Assembly: GCA_024407725.1 (NCBI GenBank)
Contig: JAKSVZ010000018.1
Location: 1 to 12,662, forward strand
From: Opitutales bacterium
GTDB lineage: Bacteria; Verrucomicrobiota; Verrucomicrobiia; Opitutales; UBA9783
DNA: 12,662 nucleotides
Direction: 5' to 3'
Part shown: positions 2,922 to 12,662 of the stretch, piece by piece
How the letters are laid out: each line of letters opens with the position of its first letter
How positions within the stretch are numbered: position 1 is the first letter of the stretch
The notes under the pieces: generated by a model
The model's input: the letters and a program-made list of their open reading frames with translations, nothing else
Databases searched by the model: none
What the model was told of the DNA's origin: nothing
Translations under genes and position numbers: made by a program

Positions 2922-4156
2922 GCCATTGGGCTGCGTTTGGCAGGTTTTCTTTTGAAAGGATGCTTATTATGCCGATGAAACGGCTTATGGGGCGCTTGTG
3001 GCTGTTCCATGGGAACAAAATCGTTCCAAAAGCGTTTGGCCGATACAATGGGTAACGTTTGCTGAATTTTCTTTTCGATCGCGCGCAACAAAGGTTTTTC
3101 TTCGGCGTCGCAAAAGGAATACGCTATGCCGCATTTGCCGGCTCTTCCGGTACGTCCGATGCGATGGACATAGCTTTCAGGCTCATTGGGCAGATCGAAA
3201 TTGATTACATGGCTTACGTTGGAAATATCGATTCCACGCGAAGCTACATCGGTTGCTATTAAAATTCTACTGGTGCCTTGCTGAAATTCTTTCAATGCTC
3301 GCTGACGTTCACGCTGGGATTTATCCCCATGCAGCACGCAATTAACAATGTTAGCTTGCCGTAACCGTCGTCCAATGCGATCGGCGCCATACTTTGTTTT
3401 TGAGAAAACAATCAGGCGTTCGCAGTTTTCTTGCTCGATAATATGCTGTAATAGCTCCTGTTTTTGAGCTTTTGGCATAAAGATCAAAAATGAATCGATG
3501 GTGGACGTAACGGTGGCAGGAGGAGCGACTTCTACTCGCTTGGGTTGCTTCAAAAAGGATTGAACTAAGTGTTCAATGCCTTTGGGAAAGGTTGCAGAAA
3601 ACAGTAGGGTTTGGCGCTGAGTTGGCAATAGCCCCATAATGCTTTTAATGGCCGGCAAAAATCCCATGTCGAGCATGCGGTCGGCCTCATCGAGTACGCA
3701 ACAACTTACGTTGTTTAAAGGCAATAAGGAGCGTTTGTGTAAATCCATTAAACGCCCTGGGGTCGCGACCAAAATATCGATACCCTTTTTAATGGCTCGA
3801 ATTTGGGGATTTTCGTTAACACCGCCGAAAATAGCACCCCAACGCAGAGGAGTATGGCGTCCGTAACGCTTTAAATGTTCCGCTATCTGCAAAGCCAATT
3901 CGCGCGTAGGTACCAAAATTAAGGCTTTGGGTGAGCGACCCGATTGTGCCAATGGCTTCGTGAGTAGGTTTTGTAAAATGGGCAAGGAAAAGGCAGCCGT
4001 TTTCCCTGTTCCGGTTTGAGCAATACCTAACAGGTCATGTCCTTGGAGAATGAGTGGAATAGCTTGATCTTGAATTTGGGTTGCCTGAGTGTAATGCGCT
4101 TCGTCGATTGCTTGTAGCAATAAAGGATCTAAATGGAAGTCCGAAAACAGCGTCAT
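2918..4156 (-). CDS. ATP-dependent DEAD-box RNA helicase (RhlE-like, basic C-terminal tail)
   Basis: 412-aa ORF with the full motif set: Q motif (F..F.L...LLQAI....YTQATQIQ), AQTGTGKT, PTRELA, DEAD (VLDEADRMLDMGF), SAT, ARGID-like (VASRGIDI) and HRIGRTGRAG. The C-terminal tail is Lys/Arg/His-rich. Confidence 0.92.
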   Translation of the reverse strand: MTLFSDFHLDPLLLQAIDEAHYTQATQIQDQAIPLILQGHDLLGIAQTGTGKTAAFSLPILQNLLTKPLAQSGRSPKALILVPTRELALQIAEHLKRYGRHTPLRWGAIFGGVNENPQIRAIKKGIDILVATPGRLMDLHKRSLLPLNNVSCCVLDEADRMLDMGFLPAIKSIMGLLPTQRQTLLFSATFPKGIEHLVQSFLKQPKRVEVAPPATVTSTIDSFLIFMPKAQKQELLQHIIEQENCERLIVFSKTKYGADRIGRRLRQANIVNCVLHGDKSQRERQRALKEFQQGTSRILIATDVASRGIDISNVSHVINFDLPNEPESYVHRIGRTGRAGKCGIAYSFCDAEEKPLLRAIEKKIQQTLPIVSAKRFWNDFVPMEQPQAPHKPFHRHNKHPFKRKPAKRSPMA

Positions 4157-5425: not shown

Positions 5426-6280
5426 TTAGAAGGTTCTTCCTACGCCCAAATAGATTTGGTCGGAATGCATGGTGCCGAAGGGGAGGCTATGGTCATAAAG
5501 CTTTGAATCTGATGCTTGATGCAAGCCGATATGGCGGTAACCGACTTCAAATAAGGTTTCGAATTTCTCTGCGCGTACAAATAGGGTCATGCTGTACAAC
5601 AACGAACCGGCATGGACATACTTAGAAGCATGTGAAAAATAACACTGACTATTAGCTACCATAGCTCCTCCCTGTAGATAATCAAACCACTGAATCACGT
5701 TAAATTTGGTGCAGATATATGCACCACCAATTCCGCCACCAATACCGATGGATAGGTAATCGAGTAAATACTGCTCCCAATAGACATTGAGCTGAGCACC
5801 GGCAATGCGTTGATTCTTAAAATAATGGCATCGATGATGGCGCAACCAACAATTATTGGCGTCAAATCGAAAAACATCGACGATAATATCTGGAGCAGGT
5901 AGTATTATTTCTTCAACATTCGATGTAGGACGATGGGAATCTTTCCCTTTTAGATAAGCTCCTAGTAGTTCAACTTCAATCCCTACGGCGCCGAGGTCAA
6001 AAATATCAAATCTTCTTCCTAAAGCCACCGATCCGTTATAAGAATGATCATATTGGAATTTGCCCTGTAGACAATCGGGGGTATTGCGATATAAATCAAA
6101 AGTAATACGATGACTGTCTTGAACAAGATAGGGTTCCGTCCATTCTTCATAGGGGATAACCTCTCCTTTAAAATCTCCGAAACCGGAGCGTACCATTACG
6201 TAACCCAAACAGGGCGTGCTTATTCCTAACCCTAGGCTTAAGGTGCCTAAAACCATCCATTTGTGAATTTTGGTTCCCAT
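5426..6280 (-). CDS. Predicted outer-membrane beta-barrel protein, paralog A (uncharacterised family)
   Basis: Start re-called at ATG 6280 (MGTKIHKWMVLGTLSLGLGISTPCLG...), preceded by the SD AAGGAAG. It has a hydrophobic signal peptide, a Gly-rich GIGGGIGGAY block and a terminal ...IYLGVGRTF with C-terminal Phe, a BAM beta-signal-like feature. It is clearly paralogous to 11631-12575. Function is inferred from sequence features only. Confidence 0.75.
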   Translation of the reverse strand: MGTKIHKWMVLGTLSLGLGISTPCLGYVMVRSGFGDFKGEVIPYEEWTEPYLVQDSHRITFDLYRNTPDCLQGKFQYDHSYNGSVALGRRFDIFDLGAVGIEVELLGAYLKGKDSHRPTSNVEEIILPAPDIIVDVFRFDANNCWLRHHRCHYFKNQRIAGAQLNVYWEQYLLDYLSIGIGGGIGGAYICTKFNVIQWFDYLQGGAMVANSQCYFSHASKYVHAGSLLYSMTLFVRAEKFETLFEVGYRHIGLHQASDSKLYDHSLPFGTMHSDQIYLGVGRTF

Positions 6281-6295
6281 ATCTTCCTTGACTTT

Positions 6296-6355
6296 GGGAT
6301 CCTTCTTGCGGGGGATCCTTCTTGCGGGGGATCCTTCTTGCGGGGGATCCTTCTT
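6296..6355. repeat. Perfect tandem direct repeat, 16-bp unit GGGATCCTTCTTGCGG x 3.75 (gene-sense CCGCAAGAAGGATCCC)
   Basis: Read directly: units at 6296-6311, 6312-6327 and 6328-6343, plus a partial 6344-6355, with no mismatches. The array ends 15 nt upstream of the paralog A start codon. Confidence 0.97.
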
Positions 6356-6362
6356 AGAAGAA

Positions 6363-6391
6363 ATTGTGAGTGCAGTTTTTATACTTTGCAA
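6363..6391 (-). promoter_or_regulatory. Weak candidate promoter for OMP paralog A
   Basis: On the minus strand: TTGCAA (6391-6386), a 17-nt spacer, then CACAAT (6368-6363). The predicted TSS at about 6356 is the distal edge of the tandem repeat, which would put the whole array in the 5' UTR. The -10 is weak (4/6). Confidence 0.25.
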
Positions 6392-6407
6392 GCTTTTTTT
6401 ACTTTTT

Positions 6408-6436
6408 TTGAAAAGGTACTGTTTATGCTTTATAAT
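6408..6436 (+). promoter_or_regulatory. Candidate sigma70-type promoter for glgP
   Basis: TTGAAA (6408-6413), a 17-nt spacer, then a consensus TATAAT (6431-6436), 20 nt upstream of the glgP ATG. An A/T-rich tract lies immediately upstream (6391-6407). Confidence 0.5.
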
Positions 6437-6456: not shown

Positions 6457-8892
6457 ATGATTCTTTCTAAAGAAGCTTTGAAGGCGTCTATTCAGCGCCA
6501 TTTATATCAAACCATTGCGCGACCCATTCATGCTGCAACCAAGCACGATTGGTGGTTAGCGAGTTGTTATGCCATCAATGAGCATATTTTGCAGCATTTG
6601 ACGGAAAACCAAGCGATTCAAAAGCAAAAGGATGTAAAGCGTGTGTATTATTTCTCGCTTGAGTACCTGATTGGTCGCTTGCTCAACACCAATGTAGATA
6701 ATTTAAACCTTAAAGAGACGCTTATAGACGTTCTGAAAGATTTTGGGCAAGACTATGATCTGATTCGTCATGAAGAGTGTGACATGGGGCTTGGTAATGG
6801 TGGATTGGGGCGCTTGGCGGCGTGTTTTATGGATTCGCTGGCGACCCTTGATTATCCGGCGGTTGGTTATGGAATTTTGTATGAATTTGGGCTGTTTAAG
6901 CAAGCAATTCATGACTTGAAGCAGGAAGAATTGCCGGACAGCTGGTTAACCTTTGGCAATCCTTGGCGGTTGTTGCGCTCTGATCGTACACAAAGGGTGC
7001 ACATTGGTGGGCATTTGGAGTCTTATCAAACCGAAACGGGTGAGCAGCGGCAACGTTGGGTAGGAACAAAAACCATTTTGGGGGTACCTTGGGATATTCC
7101 GATTGTTGGGTACCATGGAACCACGGTTAATTATTTACGGTTGTGGGAATCGCGTGCGTCAGAAGATTTTGACCTCAAAGTGTTCAACGAAGGAGGGTAT
7201 ATTGAAGCGGTTCGCGATAAGGCTTATGGAGAAACCATTTCCAAAGTATTGTATCCGAACGATCGTATTGAAAATGGGAAAAAATTGCGTCTCATGCAGG
7301 AATACTTTTTTGCTTCCTGTTCGTTGCATGACATTATCCGTCGTTATAAGCGCGCGCATAATTCTTTTAACGAATTTGCGAAAAAGGTAGTAATTCAGTT
7401 GAATGATACCCATCCTGCAATTGCTATTCCGGAATTGATGCGCATTTTTATCGATGAAGAAGGCATGGATTGGCAATCTGCATGGGATTTATGCCGATCG
7501 GTTTTTGCGTATACCAACCATACCTTGTTGCCGGAAGCGCTCGAGCGTTGGAGCGTTCCGTTAATTCAGCAACTTTTACCGCGCCACCTACAGCTGATTT
7601 ACGAAATCAATCAGTGGGTGTTGGATAAAGAGGTGTCTGTAAAGTGGCCTGGCGATGACAATAAGCGCCAGCGGTTGTCATTGATCGAAGAAGGAAATCC
7701 GCAGTACGTTCGTATGGCATTTCTATCGATTGTGGGAAGCTTTTCGGTCAATGGGGTGGCAAAGTTACACACCCAGTTGCTTAAGGAGCAATTGTTCCCT
7801 GAATTTAATGAGCTATATCCCCATAAATTTAACAACAAAACCAATGGGGTAACGCCTCGGCGTTGGATTCAATCCATCAATCCGCGCTTGGCCACTTTTA
7901 TCACACGTACCTTGGGGCATGATCGTTGGTTAACGGATTTAGAGCAACTGAAACAGTTAGAAAAATATGTTGATTCCGATGAGCATTTGAATACCTATCG
8001 GGCGATTAAACAGGCCAACAAGCGGGATTTTGCTCAGTATCTTCAATCGGAGTGTGGTATTGAGGTAGACCCCACTGCTTTATTTGATGTACAAATCAAG
8101 CGCATTCATGAATACAAACGGCAGCATTTGAGCTTATTGTATGCACTCAAGCTGTATAGCGATTTATTGAACGGCAAACGTTCGACCGATTTCAAGCGCG
8201 TTATTATTTTCGCCGGTAAAGCAGCGCCAGGGTACTATTTTGCTAAGGAGATTATTTATGGTATCAATGTGTTGGCGCAGCATGTTAACCAAGATCCAAA
8301 GATCGAAGGAGCGCTCAAGGTGATTTTTGTTCCTAATTACAATGTGACCTTAGCCGGTAAAATCATTCCTGCAGCGGATTTGTCAGAGCAAATTTCAACG
8401 GCAGGTAAAGAGGCGTCAGGCACCGGTAATATGAAATTGGGGCTCAATGGAGCGTGTACCATTGGAACGTTGGATGGAGCTAATATCGAAATGCTCGATC
8501 ATGTGGGAAAGGATAACATCTTTATTTTCGGTCATACCGTTGAGGAACTGGATGCATTGCGCCGTAAGGGTTACCATCCGTACGATTATTATCGGGATAA
8601 TCCAACCCTGCATCAGTTGTTGGATTGGATGAACAGCGACTGTTTTATGCAGAACGGCCAATATCCTTTGCGGTCGATTCGAGATAACCTCTTGAATGGC
8701 GATCCATTCTTCGTACTGGCTGACTTTCAGGCTTATTGCGAAATGCAAGATACCTGCGAACGTATTTGGCAACAGCCCCGTTTGTGGACCCAAAAAGCTT
8801 GGCTTAATACCGCCCGCTTAGGTTATTTTTCCAGCGACCGTACCATCCGCGATTACGTCAAGGATATTTGGAAATTACAGGTGTTGCATTAA
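6457..8892 (+). CDS. glgP: Glycogen/maltodextrin phosphorylase (GT35)
   Basis: 811-aa ORF of the expected length. It carries the pyridoxal-phosphate Lys motif EASGTGNMKLGLNGA and other family blocks (LGNGGLGRLAACF, NDTHPA, TNHT). Confidence 0.95.
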   Translation: MILSKEALKASIQRHLYQTIARPIHAATKHDWWLASCYAINEHILQHLTENQAIQKQKDVKRVYYFSLEYLIGRLLNTNVDNLNLKETLIDVLKDFGQDYDLIRHEECDMGLGNGGLGRLAACFMDSLATLDYPAVGYGILYEFGLFKQAIHDLKQEELPDSWLTFGNPWRLLRSDRTQRVHIGGHLESYQTETGEQRQRWVGTKTILGVPWDIPIVGYHGTTVNYLRLWESRASEDFDLKVFNEGGYIEAVRDKAYGETISKVLYPNDRIENGKKLRLMQEYFFASCSLHDIIRRYKRAHNSFNEFAKKVVIQLNDTHPAIAIPELMRIFIDEEGMDWQSAWDLCRSVFAYTNHTLLPEALERWSVPLIQQLLPRHLQLIYEINQWVLDKEVSVKWPGDDNKRQRLSLIEEGNPQYVRMAFLSIVGSFSVNGVAKLHTQLLKEQLFPEFNELYPHKFNNKTNGVTPRRWIQSINPRLATFITRTLGHDRWLTDLEQLKQLEKYVDSDEHLNTYRAIKQANKRDFAQYLQSECGIEVDPTALFDVQIKRIHEYKRQHLSLLYALKLYSDLLNGKRSTDFKRVIIFAGKAAPGYYFAKEIIYGINVLAQHVNQDPKIEGALKVIFVPNYNVTLAGKIIPAADLSEQISTAGKEASGTGNMKLGLNGACTIGTLDGANIEMLDHVGKDNIFIFGHTVEELDALRRKGYHPYDYYRDNPTLHQLLDWMNSDCFMQNGQYPLRSIRDNLLNGDPFFVLADFQAYCEMQDTCERIWQQPRLWTQKAWLNTARLGYFSSDRTIRDYVKDIWKLQVLH

Positions 8893-9249
8893 AACCAGTA
8901 AAATTGGTTTGATAGTTGTTCAATTTTGGTTGTTATAAAATTTGTGGTACAAGAACAACCATTGTCTGAATTACTTTATCGCAAATGGCAACCCTTAAAA
9001 GCCTGTAAAGTGTTATTACCCCAGTTGTTTCGGTGTAAAAACATGGAGATTCGATATGCTATTTGGTATCGTTTACAAGATTACTTTCGTATATGATCAT
9101 GTTTAGATTTACATTATAATATCCAGAAGGTTTTAGAGGAGCAAAATACCCAGTATAAATCGCATGATTATGGGCAATCGTACTTTTATCAATCCTGTAA
9201 ACCGGCTAATATAAGCGGTTTTCGTAATACAGAAGCACGGATTGCGTCT

Positions 9250-9744
9250 ATGCAATTAGCCTCTTATGTAAAAGGAGCAAGGGTTATGGATATAGGCTGT
9301 AGTTTTGGTTTTTTAAGTATTGAGCTTGCGCGTTTTGCCGAATCTATAACAGGGTTTGATATCAATCCTTATTGTATCAGAATTGCGGATATAGTTGCGC
9401 ATTACCTACAGGTGAACAACACGCGTTTTTTGCCTATAACGTTTGAAGATTACCAGGAACAGGCTGAGTATGATGTTGTGCTATCTTTGGCGAACCATCA
9501 TACGTTTGACCAAAATACTCATCAATCATTACAAAGTTATTTTCAAAAGTGTGCGACTTATTTAAAACCTGGTGGATTGTTATTATTTGAGTCTCATGCA
9601 GTTTGCTATGAAACCCCTGAACAATTAGAAAAGGTTATTCAGGTTATAGCGCAATTTTTTGACATACGTGAGCGGCGAGTGCTGAACAAAGGTAATCGTG
9701 TCTCAGATAGAGGCCGTACCTTTTGCGTATGTGTTAAGAAATAA
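9250..9744 (+). CDS. Class I SAM-dependent methyltransferase (core; possibly N-terminally truncated or a pseudogene)
   Basis: Motif I VMDIGCSFGFL lies 13 aa after the ATG, followed by an acidic post-I residue (FD) and LKPGGLLLFE (motif IV-like). No SD precedes 9250. The same frame is open upstream to 8902 apart from one TGA at 9094 (see findings). Confidence 0.6.
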   Translation: MQLASYVKGARVMDIGCSFGFLSIELARFAESITGFDINPYCIRIADIVAHYLQVNNTRFLPITFEDYQEQAEYDVVLSLANHHTFDQNTHQSLQSYFQKCATYLKPGGLLLFESHAVCYETPEQLEKVIQVIAQFFDIRERRVLNKGNRVSDRGRTFCVCVKK

Positions 9745-9770
9745 AGCAAGTTGTAAGCTTGATTATAGAG

Positions 9771-9800
9771 TTGCTGTCGTTTTATCGGAATCGTTAAGAT
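9771..9800 (+). promoter_or_regulatory. Candidate promoter for kdsA (leaderless geometry)
   Basis: TTGCTG (9771-9776), an 18-nt spacer, then TAAGAT (9795-9800), with 6 nt to the A of the kdsA ATG at 9807. No SD. Hexamer match only. Confidence 0.25.
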
Positions 9801-9806
9801 AACATT

Positions 9807-10628
9807 ATGTCTATCTTTCATCCCGATAAATTTCTATTGATTGCGGGTCCGTGTGCTATTGAAACGGAGGCGGTTTGTGAACAAGTAGCGTCTGTGTTGG
9901 CGACGTTACAGCAACAGTACGCTTCCAAATTGGATGTTGTATTTAAAGCTTCGTTTGATAAAGCAAATCGGACGCAGGTAACCAGCGCGCGTGGGGTTGG
10001 AATGGAGCGTGGGTTGGCTATTTTAGCTGATATTCATACGCGTTATGCCTTGCCGGTTACTACCGATGTTCATGAAAGTCATCAGGCGGCAACAGTTGCC
10101 AAAGTATGCGCTATGTTGCAAATTCCTGCGTTTTTATGCCGGCAAACGGATTTGTTGCGAGCAGCGGCAGAAACGGGACGGTGTGTTAGTGTGAAAAAGG
10201 GGCAGTTTTTGTCTCCGTTTGATATGCGTTATGTAGCTGAAAAACTGCAGCATTTTCATGCCAAAGAAACGATTTTAATGGAGCGCGGTACTACGTTTGG
10301 CTATGGAAACCTAGTGGTTGATATGCGTGCGTTTGATATTTTGAAACAGACGCATTGTCCGGTAGTGTTCGATGCGACTCATAGCTTGCAATTGCCAGGG
10401 TGCGGTACGCAAACAACCGGCGGTGATCGTGGTTACCTTCCGTCTTTATCCAAAGCAGCTTTGGCTGCGGATGCAGATGGGCTATTTGTCGAGGTGCATC
10501 CTGACCCTGCATCGGCTTGGTCGGATTCAGCCACCCAACTGCCTTTAAATCAACTGCCGGCCTTGATGGAACAATGGCTCGCGCTGTGGGAATTGAACCG
10601 TACGTTGCCCAAAATTAACTTAGCCTAA
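9807..10628 (+). CDS. kdsA: 3-deoxy-8-phosphooctulonate (KDO-8-P) synthase
   Basis: 273 aa with KdsA blocks: LIAGPCAIE, FKASFDKANR, KKGQF, ERGTTFGY.NLVVDMR, FDATHSLQLPG. Confidence 0.93.
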   Translation: MSIFHPDKFLLIAGPCAIETEAVCEQVASVLATLQQQYASKLDVVFKASFDKANRTQVTSARGVGMERGLAILADIHTRYALPVTTDVHESHQAATVAKVCAMLQIPAFLCRQTDLLRAAAETGRCVSVKKGQFLSPFDMRYVAEKLQHFHAKETILMERGTTFGYGNLVVDMRAFDILKQTHCPVVFDATHSLQLPGCGTQTTGGDRGYLPSLSKAALAADADGLFVEVHPDPASAWSDSATQLPLNQLPALMEQWLALWELNRTLPKINLA

Positions 10629-10636
10629 GTTTTAAC

Positions 10637-11560
10637 GTGGATGTTGCTACGCGTATCGTTTTTTGTGCCTCATCGGAAATAGCCTTTCCTTGTTTGGATT
10701 ATTTGCAGAGTAATCCGGCGGTGCATTTATGCGGGATTTTAACGCAACCGAGCCGTGCGAAGGGTCGCGGGCAGGTTGTTAGCTTGAATGTAGTGGGGCA
10801 ATGGGCGCAGCAGCGTGGTATTCCTTTTTATCCTGCCGATCGAATGGACGAAGCAACCCTGCAGTGGGTTAGCGATTTATCGCCGGATGCAGTATTGGTG
10901 ATGGCTTTTGGACATATCTTGCCCCAACGCTTTTTGTCCATTCCACCGCTGGGTACGTGGAACCTCCATGTATCGTTATTGCCGAAGTACAGAGGGGCTT
11001 CTCCTATCCAAACCGCTTTGTTAAATGGGGATAGGGAAACAGGGGTAACCTTTATGCGTCTGGTGCCCAAATTAGATGCAGGGCCGTATTTATTGCAGGA
11101 AACCGTGTCGATTGAGCCTCAGGACACGAGTATTACCTTGGGCGAAAAATTGGCTCATAAAAGCGCGGAAATATTGGCAAAAGCACTTCCTTTGTTGACT
11201 CCATCGGTCAATTGCACTCCGCAGGTAGATAGCCAAGCAACGTTTTGCAAAAAGATTTCGAAAGCCGATGGTGCGTTGGATTTTAACCAACCGGCGGTTG
11301 TTTTAGAGCGCCAAATTCGTGCTTTTCAACCTTGGCCCGGTTTATACTTTTTTAAAGACGGAATACGGTATAAGGTGCTTCAAGCGCATTTAGCAGATGT
11401 AACGACTCATTGCCCACCCGGAACCTTTATCGTTAACGCTCAGCGCACAACCCTAACTCTTGCTACTGCCGATGGCTATTTGGCAATCGATCAGATTCAA
11501 AAAGCGTGCGAACGACCCATGTCCATCGTTGACTTTTTACGCGGGCATCCACAATTTTAA
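10637..11560 (+). CDS. fmt: Methionyl-tRNA formyltransferase
   Basis: 307 aa. The formyltransferase core is HVSLLPKYRGASPIQTALLNGD, with N-terminal RIVFCASSEIAFPCL and a C-terminal Fmt domain. GTG start 8 nt after the kdsA stop, suggesting an operon. Confidence 0.9.
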   Translation: MDVATRIVFCASSEIAFPCLDYLQSNPAVHLCGILTQPSRAKGRGQVVSLNVVGQWAQQRGIPFYPADRMDEATLQWVSDLSPDAVLVMAFGHILPQRFLSIPPLGTWNLHVSLLPKYRGASPIQTALLNGDRETGVTFMRLVPKLDAGPYLLQETVSIEPQDTSITLGEKLAHKSAEILAKALPLLTPSVNCTPQVDSQATFCKKISKADGALDFNQPAVVLERQIRAFQPWPGLYFFKDGIRYKVLQAHLADVTTHCPPGTFIVNAQRTTLTLATADGYLAIDQIQKACERPMSIVDFLRGHPQF

Positions 11561-11630
11561 CAAATAAAAAAACCGGGCAAAACTGTGTCTGGCTTGAAAG
11601 ACAAGGGGACATACCTCCCAATAAGCGTTT

Positions 11631-12575
11631 TTAGAACGTCCGTCCTACGCCCAAATAGATTTGGTCGGAATGCATGTTAGCGAGTTTATCGATCGTCATA
11701 CCATACATTTTGTTGTCAAACATCTGGTGCAGCCCGATATGGCGATAACCAACTTCAAATAATGTATCAAATTTCTCTGCCCGTAAAAAGAGCATGAAGT
11801 TATACAACAACGCTCCGGTATGGGCATACTTGCGATTTTGATTAGGCTTTAAACCACCGCCCCACCAAACGTAGTGTCGACGGAATATATTAACGATTAC
11901 AGAATCCAACACTTCCCATTTTTCCAAGGTTGAAAATTTGGTGCAAACATAAGCTCCGCCAATTCCTCCCCCGATACCAGCAGATAACCAATCCAAAAGG
12001 TACTGTTCCCAATAGATGTTGGTTTGTGCACCCACGATCCGTTGATTTTTTAGGTACATCGGAATAATATGAGCCATATGCACGTTGTTTACATCCTTAT
12101 ATTGTACCATAAGGAAATCTGGGCGTGGTAGATTCACATGATCCATATGATCGTGATGATCTTGTCCAGTACCTTCTACTAACCTAATCTCAACCAGTTC
12201 TCGGTTTTTGCTATCATAACGCGCATAAGCCCCTAGGATTTCTAGCTCGATTCCTAAAGCCCCTGTATCAAATACGTCGAAGCGTCGGCCTAAGGCTACC
12301 GATAGATTGTGATGATCTTTGTAATCAAAGCGTCCCTTGGTACACGTACCATCACGTACGAGGGTAGTAGCGTTATTCCACTCAAGGTTAGCATCAGCCA
12401 AAACACCCCACGCATTGGCCGTCCAGCTTGGCAAGGTTCCCTGCTGTTTATTTTGGCTAATATCGTCTGCTTTTAATTCGCCAAAGCCACTACGTACCAT
12501 GACGTAACCGTAACAGGGGGTTGTTATTCCTAAACTTAGGCTTAAGGCGCCTAATGCCATCCATCTATGGATCAT
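11631..12575 (-). CDS. Predicted outer-membrane beta-barrel protein, paralog B (uncharacterised family)
   Basis: 314-aa ORF with ATG 12575 preceded by the SD AGGAAGG. Signal peptide MIHRWMALGALSLSLGITTPCYG. It shares these blocks with paralog A: GYVMVRSGFG, SVALGRRFD.FD.GA.GIE.E.LGAY, KNQRI.GAQ.N.YWEQYLLD.LS.GIGGGIGGAY.CTKF, RAEKF.TLFEVGYRHIGLHQ and MHSDQIYLGVGRTF (C-terminal Phe). Confidence 0.8.
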   Translation of the reverse strand: MIHRWMALGALSLSLGITTPCYGYVMVRSGFGELKADDISQNKQQGTLPSWTANAWGVLADANLEWNNATTLVRDGTCTKGRFDYKDHHNLSVALGRRFDVFDTGALGIELEILGAYARYDSKNRELVEIRLVEGTGQDHHDHMDHVNLPRPDFLMVQYKDVNNVHMAHIIPMYLKNQRIVGAQTNIYWEQYLLDWLSAGIGGGIGGAYVCTKFSTLEKWEVLDSVIVNIFRRHYVWWGGGLKPNQNRKYAHTGALLYNFMLFLRAEKFDTLFEVGYRHIGLHQMFDNKMYGMTIDKLANMHSDQIYLGVGRTF

Positions 12576-12593
12576 GTTCCCTTCCTTTTTATC

Positions 12594-12662
12594 GGGAACC
12601 CTTATTGCGGGAACCCTTATTGCGGGAACCCTTATTGCGGGAACCCTTATTGCGGGAACCCT
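12594..12662. repeat. Perfect tandem direct repeat, 15-bp unit GGGAACCCTTATTGC x at least 4.6, truncated by the window end (gene-sense GCAATAAGGGTTCCC)
   Basis: Read directly: units at 12594-12608, 12609-12623, 12624-12638 and 12639-12653, plus a partial 12654-12662 running off the window. The array starts 18 nt upstream of the paralog B start codon. Confidence 0.97.

Follow-up and report, generated by a model that had tools for sequence, protein, structure and literature searches.

Two paralogous predicted surface-protein genes and their leaders

The window analysed here is an entire contig of 12,662 bp from a metagenome-assembled genome (MAG) that NCBI labels 'Opitutales bacterium', a gut/rumen-type Verrucomicrobial genome with MJ218_ locus tags. 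On its reverse strand lie two paralogous genes for predicted outer-membrane (OM) proteins, each with a perfect tandem array in its leader. Gene A (MJ218_03600, 5426–6280; P0046 in the family search described below) encodes 284 amino acids and gene B (MJ218_03625, 11631–12575) encodes 314. The two proteins share 47% identity (E = 2e-85), and both begin with an N-terminal signal peptide and end in ...GVGRTF (termini MGTKIHKWMVLGTLSLGLGISTPCLG... and ...YLGVGRTF).

The arrays were delimited using Tandem Repeats Finder (TRF) and an exact-period scan, which agreed in both cases. Array A (6296–6355, reverse strand) consists of 3.75 copies of GCAAGAAGGATCCCCC, with a period of 16 and 100% matches (3.8 copies in the TRF output), and each unit contains a GGATCC palindrome and a Shine-Dalgarno (SD)-like AAGGA. 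Array B (12593–12662, reverse strand) consists of at least 4.7 copies of GCAATAAGGGTTCCC, with a period of 15 and again 100% matches; it is cut by the contig end at 12662, so that its copy number is a lower bound and the promoter of B lies outside the window. The exact-period scan found no arrays in the window besides these two, and no comparable one arose in 300 windows simulated from a first-order Markov model. The two units differ in length by 1 nt and agree at 12 of 15 positions. Of 500 shuffled units, only one matched as well, although the comparison was free to use any rotation and to delete any single base. A first-pass annotation of this DNA had described a perfect 16-bp array of 3.75 copies ending 15 nt upstream of a start codon, together with a homologous but non-identical unit at the paralog, and both descriptions hold.

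Between array A and its gene lies a non-repeated leader of 15 nt, aaagtcAAGGAAGat (6281–6295, reverse strand), with an SD sequence AAGGAAG at 6289–6283 followed by the ATG at 6280–6278. The corresponding leader of B, ATAAAAAGGAAGGGAAC (12576–12592, 17 nt, reverse strand), has the same AAGGAAG at 12587–12581 and its ATG at 12575–12573. Since both arrays end 6 nt upstream of this shared SD sequence, they occupy homologous positions. Furthermore, each gene has a short reverse-strand box complementary to its own unit. The GGGAAC box of B (12581–12576) is non-coding and is the exact complement of GUUCCC in the B unit, and the UGGGAACC box of A (6272–6279) overlaps the start codon and is complementary to the GGAUCCCA part of the A unit.

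The gene interval first assigned to A (5426–6391) proved to be a mechanical open reading frame (ORF) of 321 amino acids that runs from a TTG through the array. A coding repeat was rejected, as the 16-bp unit breaks the frame at every unit, and the TTG start was likewise discarded in favour of the ATG at 6280, which has an SD sequence and is directly followed by the family-conserved signal peptide. With AAGGAAG upstream of this ATG and the signal peptide straight after it, array A is non-coding.

Neither protein matched Pfam above the curated thresholds, and Rfam gave no match in the window or in the leader. An AlphaFold2 (AF2) model of B, built on a 42-sequence family alignment in which the terminal Phe is invariant, had a predicted local distance difference test score (pLDDT) of 85.3 and a predicted TM-score (pTM) of 0.78, with long β strands and an N-terminal signal helix. 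Foldseek searches of this model against the PDB gave 21 matches at E ≤ 1e-3, all of them OM barrels (OmpA, OmpX, Ail, FadL and Legionella porins), and NspA and OpcA followed just above E 1e-3. The best matches had probabilities of about 1.0, low TM-scores (0.2–0.35) and identities of 8–10%. The earlier assignment of A and B as OM β-barrels is thus supported by the model and by its barrel-only matches, from which the family is very probably one of lineage-specific predicted OM β-barrels. Like the OmpA N-terminal domain, OmpX/Ail, NspA and OpcA, its members combine a signal peptide with an aromatic C-terminus and an all-β character, but they are larger than the small OM barrels (284–314 amino acids) and share no Pfam family with them. 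Judged by sequence, they would form a new barrel family with no known relative.

Within the coding sequence (CDS) of A, a 12-bp repeat of two copies (5724–5747) encodes GIGGGIGG, which is invariant in the family and present at the same site in four further loci (L003, L008, L015 and L019). It is a conserved glycine-rich strand or turn and not a variable repeat.

Arrays across the family and their turnover

The family search recovered 68 proteins, about 15 of which belong to the window's MAG; related metagenome assemblies supplied the others. GTDB representatives included a single related genome, that of Verrucomicrobia bacterium UBA3869 (L005), on which a literature search found nothing, and a scan of metagenome contigs gave four short rumen contigs without useful leaders. 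At least five of the approximately 15 paralogs in the MAG have leader arrays (A, B, MJ218_01355, MJ218_02040 and MJ218_03920), and these are built from five different units of 9, 15, 15, 15 and 16 bp. The leader of MJ218_01355 has at least 3.8 copies of ATTAGTTTA, that of MJ218_02040 (L025) at least 3.7 copies of the 15-bp CTTATAAGGAAATGA, which holds both an SD sequence and an in-frame ATG, and that of MJ218_03920 at least 4.6 copies of ACTTCTTACATAGGT; these units are either unrelated to those of A and B or phased differently.

In related genomes, CTTATAAGGAAAC[GA]C is present in 3.8 copies at L004, 4.8 at L019 and 5.8 at L023 (two loci) and L024, and CTTTATAAGGAAATAA in two copies at L020 and L021. 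The L022 leader carries 5.5 copies of AAAAAT (9969–10001), P0029 has about 5 copies as inferred from a read-through translation, and the leaders of L005 and L027 hold their unit in single copy. No leader array was present in the divergent subfamilies L006 and L008. Among genes whose upstream DNA was read, arrays stand upstream of most core family members. They occur at A, B and more than 10 further family loci, with units of 6–16 bp in 1–6 copies, and those of relatives, with units of 6, 15 or 16 bp, occupy the same position. Across the approximately 170 kb of DNA fetched, TRF found perfect arrays scoring above 60 nowhere but upstream of family genes. Hence the combination of array and gene first noted at A and B recurs in many more family members, and the observation that arrays are uniform inside and divergent between loci extends across the family.

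Several leaders have features of their own. In the MJ218_02040 array (L025, 1–60) there are at least four in-frame start codons, each with its own SD sequence, and the upstream starts would prepend MTYKE repeats to the signal peptide. The AAAAAT array of L022 adjoins the ATG without any SD sequence, and its leader would consist of A and U only, so that SD-independent initiation must occur in at least one family member. Gene callers run ORFs through the arrays, which gives 'partial' proteins with TSYIG, EMTYK or YKETP repeats (for example P0004, P0012, P0029 and the TTG ORF of the window). Likewise, contigs of the MAG and its relatives end inside arrays (the window at 12662; L015, L025, L026 and L003 at position 1), breaks that possibly reflect long or heterogeneous arrays and are not diagnostic of them. 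The leader arrays are accordingly an assembly and annotation hazard in such genomes. Separately, the indexed records of GCA_024500515.1 (JALNLU01...; L001, L002, L016–L018, L025 and L026) are exactly CDS-long, like a gene-by-gene deposit.

Contig ends, at which copy numbers are not trustworthy, hold four of the five arrays in the window's genome, and we therefore considered whether metagenome assemblers had created the arrays by spurious tandem extension or collapse. Array A and those of L004, L019, L020–L024 and L027 are, however, internal with unique flanks, and separate studies with different assemblers recovered internal arrays, in two instances in identical form. Moreover, a one-copy allele has junction k-mers that, we reason, are impossible from a multi-copy template. 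An assembly artefact is therefore extremely improbable.

The confinement of the arrays also bears on a neutral origin, in which the leader is simply a slippage hotspot, for example because quasi-palindromes near a strong promoter stabilise slipped intermediates. The units are very diverse and some have no recognisable signal (MJ218_01355, L022 and MJ218_03920), the array appears dispensable in that otherwise similar genes have single-copy leaders (L005 and L027), and in MJ218_02040 the repeated segment has merely slid to take in the ATG, all of which would suit such a by-product. On the other hand, a neutral hotspot sits poorly with arrays that are restricted to one family and one position in approximately 170 kb and have arisen there repeatedly with unrelated units.

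Changes in copy number were examined at related loci, the window's species being represented by one genome. At the tsf-OMP locus (OMP, outer-membrane protein), UBA3869 has exactly one unit where L023 and L024 have 5.8, a difference of five 15-bp units, in flanks with 97.45% identity along 2945 nt. The ffh-OMP locus, at which L019 and L023 match to 95.7% across 7816 nt, holds 4.8 units in the former and 5.8 in the latter. Furthermore, L027, a 199-kb contig from a related species, shows the same glgP-methyltransferase-kdsA-fmt-OMP gene order as positions 6457–12575 of the window, so that gene B has a positional ortholog there (P0017); this ortholog has a single CTTTATAAGGAAATAA in place of the at least 4.7 copies of GCAATAAGGGTTCCC in the window. 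Taken together, the three comparisons indicate that arrays are gained, lost, resized and replaced over short evolutionary scales. The suggestion that the repeats expand and contract is thus supported by whole-unit changes in relatives (1 against 5.8 and 4.8 against 5.8).

At the tsf-OMP locus, the OMP gene body itself is only 79–89% identical between UBA3869 and L023 despite the closely similar flanks. From these sequences, the barrel gene appears to evolve or recombine much faster than its neighbours, as expected of a surface antigen.

The proposal that gene and array were inherited together stands in part. A and B do share a common 5' module, comprising homologous units, the AAGGAAG sequence, the GGGAAC box and signal-peptide DNA of about 85% identity. 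The barrel bodies, however, are not closest to one another: over the whole protein, A and B are 56% identical in the family identity comparison, A being no closer to B than to other paralogs, and the closest paralog of B, MJ218_01355 (69%), has a different leader, (ATTAGTTTA)n. This discordance between shared modules and bodies implies that 5' modules are exchanged or replaced and that arrays arise repeatedly, and the sequences argue for 5' modules that move or are converged by gene conversion.

A related observation concerns an intact tRNA-Ser(GGA) that lies directly upstream of the promoter of one paralog (L020, 9816–9905). A 3' fragment of tRNA-Ser is fused to the same promoter in L004 (approximately 2805–2835), in L027 (approximately 3905–3935) and in the read-through translations of P0009 and P0029. 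In the L020 and L027 genomes, the complete 5' module, this tRNA fragment included, has accordingly been copied from paralog to paralog. L004 and L020 were also considered as orthologous tRNA-adjacent loci differing in copy number (3.8 against 2), a comparison that was discarded because ARAGORN gives L004 only the tRNA-Ser 3' fragment.

Promoter, leader RNA folding and proposed mechanism

An A-tract-GCTTGCAA element precedes the family genes in all aligned leaders, with AAGCTTG invariant, and a AAAAAAGCTTGCAA box is conserved in all seven aligned loci, 19–25 nt before each array. The putative promoter of A (6363–6409, reverse strand) comprises A-tracts at 6394–6409, TTGCAA at 6391–6386, a 17-nt spacer and CACAAT at 6368–6363. 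It matches the sigma-70 consensus at 8 of 12 positions, which falls under the threshold of the promoter scan and explains why the scan missed it. From this promoter, the predicted transcription start site (TSS) of A lies at approximately 6355–6357, coinciding with the start of the array. A strong, divergent sigma-70-like glgP promoter (6408–6436, forward strand; TTGAAA-17-TATAAT, 11 of 12) stands back to back with that of A, about 16 bp from its −35 box, and leaves little other room for an A promoter. The L022 leader has a good −10, TAAAAT, which stands at 17-nt spacing and overlaps with its first unit. The layout across the family is hence a conserved box, about 17 nt, a weak −10, the array and the start codon, from which we infer that the array is probably transcribed as a 5' untranslated region (UTR). 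Two other interpretations of these elements were rejected: GCTTGCAA as a sigma-54 element, there being no TGGCAC at the right distance, and a leaderless mRNA using the TATAAG of the unit as −10, on account of its spacing and the lack of a −35 at the right distance.

Most units have self-complementary cores, including GGAUCC in A, GGG..CCC in B and a 10-nt palindrome, CCUUAUAAGG. In a 16-bp variant, CUUUAUAAGG, self-pairing is kept only as RNA, via G.U pairs. Four array leaders were predicted to fold considerably better than their dinucleotide shuffles (z = −8.7, −8.0, −6.3 and −5.9), with smaller values for A (−2.4), B (−2.1) and MJ218_02040 (−2.35); the (ATTAGTTTA)n, (AAAAAT)n and (ACTTCTTACATAGGT)n leaders folded no better than shuffles. 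In the minimum free energy (MFE) fold of A, GGAUCCCA of the last unit is paired with UGGGAACC at the AUG, which leaves the SD sequence in a loop. Likewise, in the MFE fold of B, GUUCCC pairs perfectly with GGGAAC just upstream of the AUG, again with the SD sequence in a loop. The GGGAAC box is kept in both genes, being coding in A and non-coding in B, and both leaders are thus predicted to form a hairpin between the repeat and a downstream arm.

Perfect palindromes of 6–10 bp in several units, regularly spaced and directly downstream of the −10, would also be expected of a DNA operator array in which palindromic cores (GGATCC, CCTTATAAGG) bind a dimeric repressor or nucleoid protein and copy number sets the degree of repression. 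Several regulators would nonetheless be needed, since paralogs of one genome have different cores (GGATCC, GGGTTCCC, CTTATAAG) or none. In addition, the L020 variant CTTTATAAGG is palindromic only as RNA with G.U pairs, and no regulator gene is linked within the window. We consider operator function very unlikely.

The effect of unit number on the start site was predicted using artificial alleles with varied numbers of units, the opening cost being the ensemble free energy required to unpair the region from the SD sequence to AUG+4. As units were added, the opening cost of A alternated between 3.7 and 7.9 kcal/mol, with an amplitude of 3.85 (shuffled, 0.43 ± 0.48). That of B alternated between 10.8 and 3.8 kcal/mol, with an amplitude of 6.2 (shuffled, 0.47 ± 0.65). 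None of 100 shuffled units reached the observed amplitude in either case. A similar alternation, of about 7 kcal/mol, was predicted for the CCUUAUAAGG type.

These predictions also bear on the neutral origin raised above. The palindromic content of the units could stem from mutational bias. A change in which a 5' UTR grows from about 10 to about 90 nt and becomes strongly self-paired, SD sequence included, is, however, unlikely to be neutral, and the complementarity of the A and B units to a start-codon box conserved in coding and non-coding contexts alike argues in the same direction. Overall, a purely neutral by-product appears rather unlikely.

The units could alternatively serve as constitutive leader elements, with SD-like AAGGA/AAGGG motifs and 5' hairpins acting as standby sites, enhancers or stabilisers and changes in copy number being incidental. 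Major OMP mRNAs of other bacteria depend on stabilising leaders, to which the arrays may be likened (STAB-SD and the ompA leader); AAGG[AG] is found in six of eight unit types, and several arrays would place stable hairpins at the mRNA 5' end. The ATTAGTTTA, AAAAAT and ACTTCTTACATAGGT arrays, however, lack AAGG[AG], and the absence of an SD-like motif from some arrays weakens a multi-SD standby site as a universal explanation. The CCUUAUAAGG type has its functional SD sequence itself buried in predicted stems, and a range of 1 to about 6 copies among close relatives would be odd for an optimised element. A constitutive role is in our judgement unlikely.

The reading that we favour, with confidence about evenly balanced, is that the arrays are hypervariable, probably transcribed leader minisatellites that modulate each OMP paralog through the structure of its leader RNA, in a family belonging to a small Verrucomicrobial clade of Opitutales-type MAGs. 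Replication slippage or unequal recombination would add and remove units, and the array would be transcribed as essentially the entire 5' UTR. With most units self-complementary, and those of A and B also complementary to the GGGAAC box at the start codon, unit number would decide the fold of the leader and the accessibility of the SD sequence and AUG, and probably also the stability of the mRNA 5' end. The output of each paralog would thereby be set independently and in a heritable yet reversible manner, and populations would contain mixed surface-protein repertoires, as at a contingency or rheostat locus.

A more specific form of this mechanism is an RNA 'parity switch', in which units pair two by two and an odd unit occludes the ribosome-binding site (RBS), or releases it in the CCUUAUAAGG type. 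We regard this form as doubtful. Were it true, the gain or loss of a single 15–16-bp unit would toggle translation ON or OFF, amounting to a structure-based, non-coding equivalent of frame-shift phase variation that evolved independently, and with unrelated units, in many OMP paralogs.

Several points weigh against modulation through leader RNA. The predicted TSS of A rests on a promoter with a weak 8 of 12 match, and were the transcript to start 7 nt further upstream, the amplitude of the alternation would be only 1.4 kcal/mol. The ATTAGTTTA, AAAAAT and ACTTCTTACATAGGT units have little or no self-complementarity, so that RNA pairing is not a universal mechanism. Furthermore, two pairs of independent samples with the same protein (L020/L021 and L023/L024) have identical arrays, which indicates that switching is not extremely fast, and units of 15–16 bp at 2–6 copies should slip far less than classical 1–7-bp tracts.

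Comparison with known repeat-controlled surface genes

What is known of repeat-driven surface variation comes, to our knowledge, almost wholly from a few human pathogens and from units of 1–7 nt. The present arrays would extend it to an uncultured Verrucomicrobial lineage of gut/rumen type, to units the size of minisatellites and to an entire family in which each of about 15 barrel genes has its private leader array. This pattern suggests that phage, protists or the host place the cell surface under strong diversifying pressure. Self-complementary units moreover lead to a concrete and cheaply testable prediction, namely that expression alternates with unit number, and such an alternation would constitute a new coupling of DNA slippage to translation. 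By analogy, the arrays may work like a contingency or rheostat locus: they lie in the leaders of predicted OM-barrel genes, and whole-unit polymorphism separates relatives at the related tsf and ffh loci, but the A and B units, at 16 and 15 bp, are not the simple-sequence units of 1–8 nt in long tracts that mark classical cases.

The closest parallel is provided by hmw1A/hmw2A of H. influenzae, where 7-bp (ATCTTTC)n repeats of about 11 or more copies form part of the transcribed 5' UTR, where their pairing with a G-rich downstream arm yields a hairpin that RNase III processes (PMC12721329). The analogy with hmw drawn in the first-pass annotation was apt, the hmw repeats now being known as a transcribed 5'-UTR hairpin (PMC12721329). 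As in hmw, the repeat stands between the promoter and the start of paralogous surface genes, each paralog has its own tract, and the units of A and B are predicted to pair with the GGGAAC box at the start codon. In contrast to hmw, the units here are 6–16 bp long, present in only 1–6 copies and wholly different in sequence between paralogs, and their self-complementarity predicts an alternating rather than a monotonic dependence on copy number. Moreover, hmw encodes a two-partner-secretion adhesin, whereas the present system is a Verrucomicrobial barrel OMP known from sequence.

In M. catarrhalis, as related in PMC4679880 (citing Attia and Hansen 2006), the copy number of (AGAT)n in the uspA2 5' UTR is strain-dependent and sets expression, and the same account places the poly-G repeat of uspA1 between the promoter and the start codon. 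The arrays described here likewise lie between the TSS, predicted in this case, and the ATG of surface-protein genes. Those of uspA2 and uspA1 are tetranucleotide or homopolymer tracts of 6–23 copies at a single gene, whereas the present ones are family-wide with diverse long units.

A large OM-barrel family in which each copy has its own tract also recalls Neisseria opa, Helicobacter hop/sabA and Treponema tpr, where hypermutable tracts allow combinatorial surface variation; in H. pylori sabA, for example, a promoter-proximal T-tract acts as a rheostat (PMC4081817). These systems use units of 1–5 nt that are coding or lie in promoter spacers, unlike the minisatellite-sized, non-coding units found here downstream of the promoter. 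Finally, the TAACTGA heptamers of Beggiatoaceae and cyanobacteria end a few nt from start codons, often replace the canonical RBS and show unit-sized indels between strains (PMC4679880). They represent one genome-wide unit upstream of many unrelated genes, in contrast to the gene-specific arrays of the single family described here.

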